Source: Candidatus Hermodarchaeota archaeon (GTDB lineage Archaea; Asgardarchaeota; Hermodarchaeia; Hermodarchaeales; Hermodarchaeaceae). From it: DNA of 10,282 nt. Location: NCBI GenBank assembly GCA_016840065.1, contig JAEOTB010000074.1, positions 1-10,282 on the forward strand, in the 5' to 3' direction. Below the pieces are notes generated by a model, which saw only the letters and a program-made list of their open reading frames with translations, made no database searches and was not told the origin of the DNA. How positions within the stretch are numbered: the stretch's first letter is position 1; each line of letters opens with the position of its first letter. Both the position numbers and the translations under genes were made by a program. Below are positions 4,497 to 10,282 of the stretch, piece after piece.

Positions 4497-4524
4497 GTAA
4501 TACTTTTTTAACGATTTGTAATAC
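4497..4524. promoter_or_regulatory. NikR operator candidate GTAATAC-N14-GTAATAC (28 bp)
   Basis: GTAATAC at 4497-4503 and 4518-4524. Read as a dyad it is GTAATA-N16-TAATAC, the same 6-16-6 geometry as the E. coli NikR operator GTATGA-N16-TCATAC. It lies 15 bp upstream of the nikM start, adjacent to an AT-rich TATA-like stretch (minus AAATAAAA, 4525-4532). Confidence 0.8.
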
Positions 4525-4609: not shown

Positions 4610-5050
4610 ATGGCGAAACAAGGTGTAACCCGTATCAGTATCTCACTACCTCCGGAACTTCTACAAGATTTTGAAAACGTTATCAACGAGATGGGATATG
4701 ATAGGTCCAAAGCGATTCAACAGGCAATGCGAACCTTCATCTCAGATTATCGCTGGGATCATCACCCAACAGCCTTTGCCGTGGGAACAATAACCCTCAT
4801 CTATCACCACGATGTTCGAGGAGTAGAATCCGAACTAACGGATATCCAACATCAATACACTGAGCTTATCACGTCATCTACTCATGTGCACTTGGATGCT
4901 GTTCATTGCCTATTAGTTATCGTCGTAAAAGGGAAGGCAAAGGAAATACAAGCGTTGGCAATGGAAATGAAAGGTCTCCGGGGTATCAAACAGCTAAAAC
5001 TGACAGGTCTTGTAGGAGATGCATCACCATCTCATGCTCATTCCCATTAA
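4610..5050 (+). CDS. nikR: Nickel-responsive transcriptional regulator NikR
   Basis: N-terminal ribbon-helix-helix (RISISLP..LL..F......GY.RS.AI) and ACT-like domain with the Ni ligands QH, HVH and C (equivalent to E. coli H76/H87/H89/C95). Divergent from nikMNQO. Confidence 0.96.
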   Translation: MAKQGVTRISISLPPELLQDFENVINEMGYDRSKAIQQAMRTFISDYRWDHHPTAFAVGTITLIYHHDVRGVESELTDIQHQYTELITSSTHVHLDAVHCLLVIVVKGKAKEIQALAMEMKGLRGIKQLKLTGLVGDASPSHAHSH

Positions 5051-5073
5051 TCTCAAGCAGATGATTAGTTAAG

Positions 5074-5991
5074 ATGAACGTGAAATTAGGTATTCATATT
5101 CCCATGGAATATTTCACCCCAACACAAGCAGTCGAGTGCGCAAAACAAGCAGATGCTGTTGGTTTAGACCTTGTTGTCGTAAATGATCACCTTTTCCTTC
5201 CTTGGACTTTTCGTGCCAGCGAGCCTTGGACAGTTCTTGCAGCAATAGCTTCTTCAACAAAGAATATTAGGCTAGGTTCCTGCGTGACACCCTTACCCCT
5301 CCGTCATCCCTTCCTTGTCGCAAAGCTTTCTGCCACAGTAGACCAGCTATCACAGGGGCGCCTAGTCATGGGTGTGGGAGCGGGCTGGTTTGAGAACGAA
5401 TTCACAAGTATTAACGTTCCATATCTGAAGCTTGCAGACCGACTAGCTCAGACCGAAGAAGCAATTCGTCTCTTGTGTGAGCTCTGGGTCAATCCATCGG
5501 TAACCTTCAAAGGGCAATATTACAACACTGACAGCCTTTCTCTCAAACCAAAACCAGTCCAGAAACCACATCCTCCACTCTACTTAGGAGGCAATTCGAA
5601 GACAATCCTTTCACTCACAGCAAAACATGGGAAAGGTTGGATGCCCTTCTCTCCCTCATTAGAGGATTTAGCACTCCGGGTTAAATTGATTGGCAAACTG
5701 CTTCGGAAAGAGAGCCGCTCACTCGACGAAATACAAATTATTCCCAGTATTCCGCTCCAATTTGGTAAAGACAGAAATAGCGCGTTTGAGCAATTACCAA
5801 ACTATCTCAAGGCTCTCCGATATTCCGGATTTAACTATATTTTAGGATCACCGTCAGAGTGCATAAAACAAATTCAAGCTTATCTAAAGGCGGGTGCTAC
5901 TCAACTCATTCTCAGACTTGTGAATCCTCCTCAAACGAAAGCACATATCCAAACAATCGCCGATGAAATAATCCCACAATTGACTCCGTGA
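5074..5991 (+). CDS. LLM-class (luciferase-like) flavin-dependent oxidoreductase, probably F420-dependent
   Basis: VNDHLF, EPWTVLAAIA..T.NIRLG..VT..PLRHP..VAK..ATVDQLS.GRL..GVGAGW and PKPVQKPHPPLYLGG are hallmark LLM motifs. F420 use is inferred from the archaeal context. Confidence 0.92.
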   Translation: MNVKLGIHIPMEYFTPTQAVECAKQADAVGLDLVVVNDHLFLPWTFRASEPWTVLAAIASSTKNIRLGSCVTPLPLRHPFLVAKLSATVDQLSQGRLVMGVGAGWFENEFTSINVPYLKLADRLAQTEEAIRLLCELWVNPSVTFKGQYYNTDSLSLKPKPVQKPHPPLYLGGNSKTILSLTAKHGKGWMPFSPSLEDLALRVKLIGKLLRKESRSLDEIQIIPSIPLQFGKDRNSAFEQLPNYLKALRYSGFNYILGSPSECIKQIQAYLKAGATQLILRLVNPPQTKAHIQTIADEIIPQLTP

Positions 5992-6027
5992 TCGGTGGTT
6001 CTAGGCCAGGGAGGAATGATTCGTGGA

Positions 6028-6246
6028 CTAACCGTTTGGCTCTATTCCACAAACTCCTTGCTCAACCCTTCTTATGCAATCTTTTAGGGCGCGTAAATCA
6101 GCCTTTATAGCCTTGGGAACTTTTACACCTCGAAGCTTAGCAAGCCACTGCTCTACTGCCGCGGTGTCTTCCCATATCTTATTCATCAAAGTCGTGCAGG
6201 TGCCGATTATAACTCCGTTTAAATCTTCGTCAAGATCAGCCATCAT
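6028..6246 (-). CDS. Small hypothetical helical protein (72 aa)
   Basis: Does not overlap neighbours and is convergent with the LLM gene (36-bp gap). Amphipathic helical pattern, purine-rich AAAAGGG upstream, BRE/TATA-like GAAAGGCTTGAAG ~45-55 nt upstream, and local similarity to the C-terminus of the 9526-10053 protein. Confidence 0.6.
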   Translation of the reverse strand: MMADLDEDLNGVIIGTCTTLMNKIWEDTAAVEQWLAKLRGVKVPKAIKADLRALKDCIRRVEQGVCGIEPNG

Positions 6247-6300
6247 TAACCCTTTCTCAGTCTTTCATAAAATATCTAGGAGAAATCCGCTTCAAGCCTT

Positions 6301-6446
6301 TCCCTAAGAGGGATATTGAAAGAAGGTGACTTTCCCTGCAGCCGCAGGGTATTGCACCAGGTTCACTTTCGGTAGATTCTACCATGGATGCAGTTCTCCG
6401 GTATCTCGTCAGAGGGCATCTCTATGCGATGCCGCTGCGCGATACC
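6301..6446. ncRNA. Candidate structured non-coding RNA or cis-regulatory element (unassigned family)
   Basis: Consecutive hairpins: TCCCT/AGGGA 6301-6313; CCCTGC/GCAGGG 6334-6349; TTGCACCA/TGGATGCAG 6352-6393 enclosing GGTAG/CTACC; nested GGTATC-CAG-GGCATC/GATGCC-CTG-GATACC 6400-6446. Confidence 0.45.
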
Positions 6447-6781
6447 AAAAACAACTATGAGCTACTATAAGATAAAGGTAACGATTAGAGTGCAATGGAA
6501 CATCGCTAGAAAAGAAATCGCAGCATTCGGGGTCAAAGGGAGAAAGAATGGTGTATTACGGAGAGGAGTTGACAACAGATTGCTATGGCGTGCTGAGGCG
6601 TATTGCGACAAGGAACATGTGTAGAACACAACCGATTGCAAGTATGAGGAAAAGTATCACACATGATTTTGTCGATAAATTCTCTAATGGCATCATGATT
6701 AACCTGACGACCAACGAAGAAAAATGTGTGTATCATGTGCTGTGTCTTCAGGAATATGCCGAGGATACCTCAGAGGTGCGG

Positions 6782-9424: not shown

Positions 9425-9525
9425 TGTATCGGCTAAATCAACTCCCCAACAAACAACAGTACACCTAATTTCTCAATATTCAAATACAACCTACAACACA
9501 ACCCTGTCCCAAGTAGGCGTTGACT

Positions 9526-10053
9526 ATGTCGGAATTTCTGCTACTATCCGTATACGGCCGGTTCCTCGAAACCAAAGGCTACCAAGTCCAGCGTCGAGTC
9601 CAACTCGGCGAAGGTGCAGGCCAAGCCGATATGATGGCAACAAAGGACAAAGAGACAGTCCTCGTAGAGGCTAGATGGGTGAAGGAAAAGGGAGACCTCT
9701 TTGAGGCCCTAGCTCGCTGTGTACTAAACAAGCAAGCGATGCCAAAAGCACAACAGGTGCTAGTTCTTGAGAAATCAATCGGAATAGAGAAAATAGGGGC
9801 AGAACTCTATGACCGCTGCTGGGAACATGGAATACGAATCCACATAGTTGACATAAATGGCCGCATGGTCTTCGAGGACACACTGACATGTCATGTCTTT
9901 CCAGGAATCCGGTCCATGCTGAAAAAAGCGAAGAGCCTCCTCAAGAAGGGCTCAGCCTCGGAAAAGAAACACCTTCAAGATCTTCTGGATGCACTGAAAG
10001 ATGTCACCGGACCCTCCACTCTAGTCGCAGACATCAAAACCCTCCTCAAGTAG
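9526..10053 (+). CDS. PD-(D/E)XK (restriction-endonuclease-like) fold protein with C-terminal helical extension
   Basis: SE......FLETKGYQV....L......AD MMATKD..TVLVEAR matches the E..L...GY.V / D / hhhEhK layout of Hjc/YraN/Mrr-like nucleases, with Arg at the Lys position. ATG 9526 is preferred over TTG 9520 because the downstream paralog also starts MSE. Confidence 0.68.
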   Translation: MSEFLLLSVYGRFLETKGYQVQRRVQLGEGAGQADMMATKDKETVLVEARWVKEKGDLFEALARCVLNKQAMPKAQQVLVLEKSIGIEKIGAELYDRCWEHGIRIHIVDINGRMVFEDTLTCHVFPGIRSMLKKAKSLLKKGSASEKKHLQDLLDALKDVTGPSTLVADIKTLLK

Positions 10054-10077
10054 TAGAGAGTTTACAAACAGTGCTAA

Positions 10078-10084
10078 TTTTTTT
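10078..10084 (+). terminator. Oligo-T archaeal-type terminator candidate
   Basis: T7 run 24 nt after the stop at 10053. Confidence 0.4.
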
Positions 10085-10116
10085 CCTTAAATGGGGGTTT
10101 GAATATATTTCCTTTT

Positions 10117-10130
10117 GGAAAGTATAAAAG
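10117..10130 (+). promoter_or_regulatory. Putative BRE/TATA promoter of the second nuclease-like paralog
   Basis: GGAAAGTATAAAAG with TATAAA at 10123-10128, 50 nt upstream of ATG 10179. Confidence 0.55.
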
Positions 10131-10178
10131 GGAAGATGAGTACTAAACAGTGTATAGAATAGACTGGGGCAGAAAAGA

Positions 10179-10282
10179 ATGTCAGAATACCTTCTACTAT
10201 CAGTATACACACGATACCTTGAGACGCAAGGCTATGAGGTAAAACGAAGAGCACCGCTTGATAAGGGGGCAGGTCTCACTGA
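10179..10282 (+). CDS. Second PD-(D/E)XK-fold paralog, 5' fragment; continues beyond the right edge
   Basis: Manual translation MSEYLLLSVYTRYLETQGYEVKRRAPLDKGAGLT is 22/34 identical to the N-terminus of the 9526-10053 protein (MSEFLLLSVYGRFLETKGYQVQRRVQLGEGAGQA). Confidence 0.85.
   Translation, partial: MSEYLLLSVYTRYLETQGYEVKRRAPLDKGAGLT

Follow-up and report, generated by a model that had tools for sequence, protein, structure and literature searches.

A conserved leader hairpin and a 42-codon open reading frame upstream of a small-protein gene in one genus of Hermodarchaeota

Does the stretch between a DUF362 gene and a gene for a 72-aa protein in a Hermodarchaeota (Asgard) genome encode a novel structured RNA, possibly a switch? 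An earlier note had proposed this for about 145 nt of closely packed hairpins in what it took to be an otherwise non-coding gap. We examined the proposal in the window, which is the whole analysed stretch of 10,282 nucleotides and corresponds to contig C57 of a 2.6-Mb MAG (G000). On the one hand, every stem that had been named is present in the DNA, and the segment 6295-6450 folds better than dinucleotide shuffles, with z -3.29 on the minus strand (0/200) and z -2.97 on the plus strand (4/200); about 1% of random 156-nt windows of the genome reach z <= -3.3. On the other hand, two thirds of the supposed non-coding element is protein-coding, because a conserved 42-codon ORF runs through it on the minus strand, and only 6400-6446, the hairpin P1, is conserved as non-coding structure. 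Accordingly, a standalone non-coding element is unsupported, and we consider it very probable that the unit consists of a coding small ORF plus a leader hairpin (Table 1).

Table 1. Features of the locus and their positions in the window.
Feature	Position	Strand	Remarks
Divergent promoter-like site, overlapping the candidate promoter	6477..6491	+	better BRE; points away from the element
Candidate archaeal promoter	6471..6484	-	weak BRE; TATA TTTATC at 6476-6471; predicted start ~6446
P1, three-part hairpin of 47 nt, putative 5' UTR	6400..6446	-	runs straight into the SD
Shine-Dalgarno (SD) GGAGA	6395..6399	-	9 nt before the ATG; invariant in 6/6
Small ORF, 42 codons	6257..6385	-	ATG 6385, stop TGA 6257
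P5 hairpin, ORF codons 13-17	6334..6349	-	4-bp core pairable in 6/6; predicted in 4/6
P6 hairpin, ORF codons 25-29	6301..6313	-	core pairable in 5/6; predicted in 4/6, P>0.8 in 3/6
Anti-SD, ORF codons 34-36	6279..6284	-	can pair with the ORF's own SD
72-aa protein gene	6028..6246	-	10 nt after the small-ORF stop; genus-restricted

The comparison rests on six distinct sequences from one genus, namely the window, contigs C114 and C115, two GTDB genomes and one ENA contig, which are labelled W (the window), L011, L012, L013, L014 and L016 in the comparisons. These loci carry the labels Hermodarchaeota or Promethearchaeota. In all six, nikR-cbiM adjoins the locus and the chromosomal place is constant, and the flanks of the locus vary; the 72-aa gene is convergent with a luciferase-like oxidoreductase gene and nikR-cbiM. 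Homologs of the element are restricted to this genus. BLAST, profile HMM and covariance model searches found none in 15 sister-genus genomes (completeness 72-91%) and none in the remaining Asgard genomes that were covered. Neither the covariance model of the whole element (R1) nor that of P1 alone (R2) scored above ~22 bits outside the genus in 19 genomes of the class and 151 of the phylum. DNA pattern scans of metagenomes and GTDB returned only chance matches besides two known loci. C114 and C115 are syntenic with the window across several genes at 66-82% identity (66-89% overall) and are 86-89% identical to each other; they most likely represent whole contigs of co-binned relatives rather than repeated copies of the element. 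Because contigs from two related species appear to be mixed in this MAG, copy counts in G000 (C57, C114, C115, C118) are unreliable. In the leader and small ORF, the closest pairs are W-C115 (88%) and L014-L016 (83%), whereas nikR and cbiM pair differently, so that the region is a recombination mosaic; the differing gene histories across window 4610-6246 point to recombination within the genus. By nikR, the window groups with L016, and both have the luciferase-like gene; by cbiM/cbiQ, the window is set apart from all other homologs.

The small ORF is open in all six homologs with its start and stop kept. It has 42 codons in five of them and 41 in the sixth, whose sequence is on balance 3 nt shorter towards the 3' end (1 plus 2 nt as read by eye) and runs to the same stop; the TGA is replaced by TAA in one homolog. 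The remaining five frames of the region are interrupted by stops in most homologs. Upstream of the genome's long ORFs, the GGAGA motif peaks at spacers of 8-10, so that the spacing before the small ORF is the modal one. Its pN/pS is 0.55 (bootstrap 0.35-0.91), which is below 1 with bootstrap P=0.013. Column permutation of the alignment gave P=0.012 for a frame open in all six and 0.0016 for this jointly with the pN/pS ratio, the ratio alone not being significant in this permutation (P=0.12). Thirteen residues are invariant, including C14, R17 and H20, and nine invariant residues (P9, G10, A11, P13, C14, H20, L22, L26 and D42) vary synonymously, as does the stop. As judged from these substitution patterns, the small ORF is under protein-level selection.

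The encoded peptide has an acidic N-terminus and a P-G-A-x-P-C-x-x-R-x-x-H core. NCBI annotates the ORF as ACFFCO_10355 in GCA_048939365, and a JGI contig has a 42-aa gene call at the matching place; no other relatives were found in a shared-word search among 5.8 billion proteins. The structural model of the peptide is unstructured (pLDDT 57), with no confident fold. HMM matches in the sister genus were discarded, as they were short and weak (E 0.002-0.03), three of them contain stops and none fits the RNA model; P0009 was a repeat-protein artefact. A plus-strand ORF starting at 6457 was also dropped, because by-eye translation showed that it is not conserved and varies from 5 to 55 codons.

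Upstream of this ORF, P1 is a conserved RNA hairpin and the sole conserved non-coding structure of the element. It starts at the predicted transcription start, and its last base lies immediately before the SD. On the minus strand its z is -2.6 to -4.8 across the six homologs, the pairing probability of its core is 0.79-1.00, and 89% of the cells of its 18 pairs are paired, with indels confined to the loop and the base. Its folding energy is -22.9 kcal/mol, and none of 893 genome windows placed equivalently before long ORFs with an SD folds as strongly. The earlier view of six stems as one element holds for 6400-6446, which is predicted in 6/6, but not for the rest, which is not predicted in all homologs. 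The stems 6371-6383 and 6352-6393 occur only in the lineage of the window, and the 3' hairpins are no better than shuffles in four of the six homologs: between the SD and 6296, two homologs have z -2.0 and -3.2, and the other four have -0.35 to +1.45. The window is the best-folding member of the six.

The strand had been left unsettled, with some wobble pairs thought to favour plus. We assign the element to the minus strand, since P1 folds better there than on the plus strand in 5/6 homologs, since the substitutions that preserve pairing give G-U there and since the SD and the ORF lie on this strand. In eight pairs of P1 just one of the two bases varies, always by way of G-U, and no pair changes on both sides among the six sequences. 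Compensatory changes, which had been proposed as a check, are thus absent from P1, and over the whole model covariation showed no excess over the shuffle control: one both-sided change occurred in 54 pairs, below the shuffle mean, in a set of six sequences with low power.

The switch-like layout did not survive the comparison either. The alternative helix between 6446-6439 and 6355-6348 has a pairing probability of 0.00 in all six homologs. With 71% of its cells paired, it is broken in five homologs, and two further pairs are present in 2/6; its central A-U pair is confined to the window sequence (1/6) and results from one Lys-to-Ile codon substitution. Considering that this helix is unpopulated and absent from the homologs, we reject a two-state switch. 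The earlier statement that there is no riboswitch, tRNA, SRP or RNase P match was borne out, as Rfam cmscan of the window and three homologs returned noise only, up to E=5-10, and no tRNA was found. A hammerhead ribozyme was considered and set aside: CUGANGA occurs in 2/6 and GAAA in 1/6 (GAAG in the others), stem II is unpaired and there is no Rfam match. Resemblances seen by eye to glycine, TPP, SAM-I, cobalamin, lysine and glmS RNAs were likewise abandoned, because the core motifs are lost in the homologs and cmscan gave nothing. An undescribed riboswitch class with a covarying multi-helix aptamer core found no support in the six sequences, at the low power that they offer. For an L7Ae k-turn leader, a 3-nt bulge followed by tandem G-A/A-G pairs would be expected, and the alignment, read by eye, has no conserved tandem GA beside the P1 bulges.

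The TATA-like element that had been proposed on the minus strand, with a start near 6446, stood in part. TTTATC is kept in 6/6 homologs, its spacing fits, and the mean identity of the promoter segment is 86%; but with a PWM built from 23 tRNA promoters of G000 the candidate scores 1.3-4.4, its TATA half falling at the low end of the range for these tRNA promoters and its BRE half being weak. The transcription start near 6446 is predicted from the TATA spacing. The divergent site on the plus strand outscores this candidate (3.3-11.5 in the six homologs), and it may explain the conservation of the BRE-side bases. In a fourU-type RNA thermometer, a run of U within the transcript would pair with the SD. 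Here the bases 6454-6447 are U-rich and capable of pairing with the SD region, but the run is situated upstream of the predicted start, and 3/6 homologs have it interrupted.

The surroundings of this promoter hold several further features. A dyad, GTAATAC-N14-GTAATAC, lies at window 4497-4524 in the divergent nikR/cbiM promoter, where it is kept in all six homologs and is a probable NikR operator. The pattern is present at the nikR/cbiM promoter in all three copies in the MAG and absent from the promoter of the element, so that membership of the element in a NikR regulon was rejected. Upstream of the promoter, a stretch of ~230 nt (window 6530-6760) is common to three of the six homologs (the window, L016 and L013) and holds a Cys-containing ORF remnant on the plus strand, varying in length from 44 to 113 aa, which is possibly a small gene in decay, transcribed from the divergent promoter. 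In L011 (1330-1470, genome G001), the DNA just upstream of the promoter looks, on reading by eye, like a right end from the IS200/IS605 family, with no Rfam match.

The small ORF is constrained beyond what its peptide would require. Its pS is 0.34 (0.23-0.44), about half of the 0.59-0.64 found in the 72-aa gene, nikR, cbiM and cbiQ, and it is lower than the pS of the 72-aa gene in 14 of 15 pairs, whereas its pN of 0.19 is higher than in these four neighbouring genes (0.11-0.15). This combination of low synonymous and high amino-acid divergence indicates that the DNA or RNA is constrained in addition to the peptide. Part of this constraint maps to the P5 and P6 stems, where Arg17 is always AGG (3' arm of P5) and Gly28 is always GGG (3' arm of P6). 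The SD/anti-SD helix has a pairing probability of 0.93-0.94 in W, L011, L012 and L013 and of 0.00 in L014 and L016, and three of the four homologs that form it fold better than synonymous recodings (p 0.008-0.028). The extra nucleotide conservation hints at translational control.

Downstream, the 72-aa gene is under normal selection (pN/pS 0.23), its homologs being 69-76% identical, and it has no clear SD. Its protein is modelled as a two-helix hairpin (helices 3-37 and 45-66, pLDDT 75) and has no family or fold match; fold searches with the model gave generic helical hairpins only, and the ESM Atlas gave no usable match. A similarity of this protein to the C-terminal end encoded by the nuclease-like gene (9520-10053) was considered and rejected, with an hhalign probability of 2% and E=10 for a paralogue in the genome scan. 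The nuclease-like genes themselves, of ~177 aa, form a tandem family at window 9520-10282, with three more copies on C118.

From these results, we consider it fairly likely that the element is the structured 5' end of a minus-strand mRNA for two small proteins, with probable translational damping; taken by itself, damping or coupling of translation is a more tentative proposal. The earlier note had offered a leader of the 72-aa gene or a standalone RNA, of which the first agrees with a 5' region of a minus-strand transcript directed toward that gene and the second is abandoned. The order on the minus strand would be the TATA (6476), the start near 6446, P1, the SD, the 42-codon ORF, a 10-nt gap and the 72-aa gene. 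P1 would cap the 5' end and protect it against 5'-end decay, and because its base abuts the SD, it would also dampen ribosome loading. Ribosomes that load during transcription would translate the small ORF, and a part of the ribosome flux would reach the 72-aa gene by termination-reinitiation, which we propose considering that this gene has no clear SD. In Haloferax, reinitiation falls to 40-60% at gaps of 13-14 nt (PMC10666635), which suggests that the 10-nt gap permits partial coupling. In four of the six homologs, the finished untranslated mRNA would fold the 3' end of the ORF over its own SD, and this closure would give initiation a time window or an on/off hysteresis; no ligand is implied. 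We found no sensory codon run, terminator or ligand pocket in the element.

A rival explanation is control by the leader peptide itself, in which stalling or run-through would set the SD/anti-SD helix and hence the output of the 72-aa gene, possibly with Ni/Co sensed either by the nascent peptide's Cys/Arg/His motif or by a metal-binding 72-aa protein. A leader that overlaps an RNA structure is expected to combine low pS with high pN, as this ORF does; C14, R17 and H20 do not vary, nikR-cbiM is adjacent in 6/6 and the helix is formed in 4/6. However, the ORF has no run of codons for a single amino acid, there is no terminator hairpin with a U-tract, the promoter of the element lacks the NikR-type dyad, no two-state fold is kept in 6/6, and synteny within one genus does not count as functional evidence. 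We regard this explanation as unlikely. The same low likelihood applies to the specific model in which the 5' hairpin and a long-range SD-masking helix in the translated 42-codon uORF gate the downstream small protein, with nickel or cobalt as a possible signal read by the conserved Cys/Arg/His motif. In the bacterial leader-peptide attenuators trpL, hisL and ivbL, a short upstream ORF likewise overlaps RNA structure and shows reduced synonymous divergence. The ORF described here differs from them in its 42 codons, in having neither a sensory run nor a terminator/antiterminator pair, and in the conservation of its peptide residues; a classical attenuator found no support, as Leu and Phe are exchanged, no sensory codon run is conserved and an alternative fold, the SD/anti-SD helix, is formed in 4/6 only.

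Slightly less probable still is an ordinary operon of two small proteins, in which the DNA conservation would come from a promoter for the 72-aa gene inside the ORF or from recent recombination between strains and the hairpins in the ORF would be incidental. Promoter-like PWM matches lie inside the ORF at 6319 and 6305, and an internal promoter could contribute to the extra conservation, but the TATA half of these matches is weak and inconsistent across homologs. The closest pairs in the region differ from those of nikR and cbiM, a mosaic that would agree with recombination; recent recombination would lower pN too, and considering that pN is raised, it fits poorly as the cause of the low pS. 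P1 would also be left unexplained. In our judgement it is improbable that the element is a structured non-coding RNA (an sRNA or an aptamer of riboswitch type) in which the reading frame arose by chance. Nucleotide conservation reaches 78% in the ORF part, compared with 70% in a control, the intergenic region of nikR-cbiM, the internal loops are purine-rich, the helices P3-P6 are 87-93% pairable and Rfam has no match; yet the 3' part has z ~0 in four of the six homologs, P3 is predicted in 1/6, covariation is not above control, the switch helix is absent, the covariance model found no homolog outside the genus in 151 Asgard genomes, and no homolog has lost the start, the SD, the frame or the stop. 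A toxin-antitoxin-like module, with the SD masked in full-length mRNA as in type I systems or with two proteins as a pair, is very improbable. Type I toxin mRNAs such as hok/mok and aapA1 have a stable 5' structure and long-range SD masking, and the element is like them in its stable 5' structure and in a distant 3' segment that masks the SD in 4/6; two small genes under one promoter and the variable flanks would also fit. Against this, neither protein is hydrophobic or membrane-spanning, PADLOC, Pfam and NCBIfam gave no match, masking is not universal, no conserved promoter that could drive an antisense RNA through the element was found, and the chromosomal place is constant.

Among known systems, its closest counterpart in working would be an archaeal small-protein mRNA whose leader is structured and whose genes are translationally coupled. 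With the small-ORF mRNAs and dual-function RNAs in the part of the Methanosarcina mazei small-proteome study considered here (PMC11456600), it shares a small ORF of <70 aa with its own SD in a structured transcript; it differs from the RNAs in that part of the study in having no sequence relation to them and in the second gene that directly follows. The likeness proposed here does not include a base-pairing sRNA function. Co-oriented genes, a short gap and a downstream gene without a clear SD are shared with archaeal termination-reinitiation coupling (PMC6728339, PMC10666635), but unlike the -4/-1 overlaps of those systems, the gap here is 10-12 nt, so that coupling would be at most partial.

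The analysis corrects a false ncRNA or riboswitch candidate and adds two genus-specific small proteins, one of which annotation usually overlooks. Should a regulatory role emerge for the SD-masking fold or the uORF, the locus would join the few known cases of archaeal post-transcriptional control, in a lineage close to eukaryotes; its narrow distribution in one genus of uncultured archaea limits this weight.

Two observations on tRNA genes were made in passing. In the sister-genus genomes G015 and G017 (L030:1440-1700 and L032:1440-1700), a conserved tRNA-like gene of ~250 nt has D-arm-like and T-arm-like segments and a CCA end; it is preceded by a good BRE/TATA, was missed by ARAGORN and by the Rfam gathering score, and reads by eye as a tRNA with several introns. 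On contig C78 of G000, a tRNA that ARAGORN labels 'Stop' has a strong promoter and is possibly tRNA-Pyl or tRNA-Sec.
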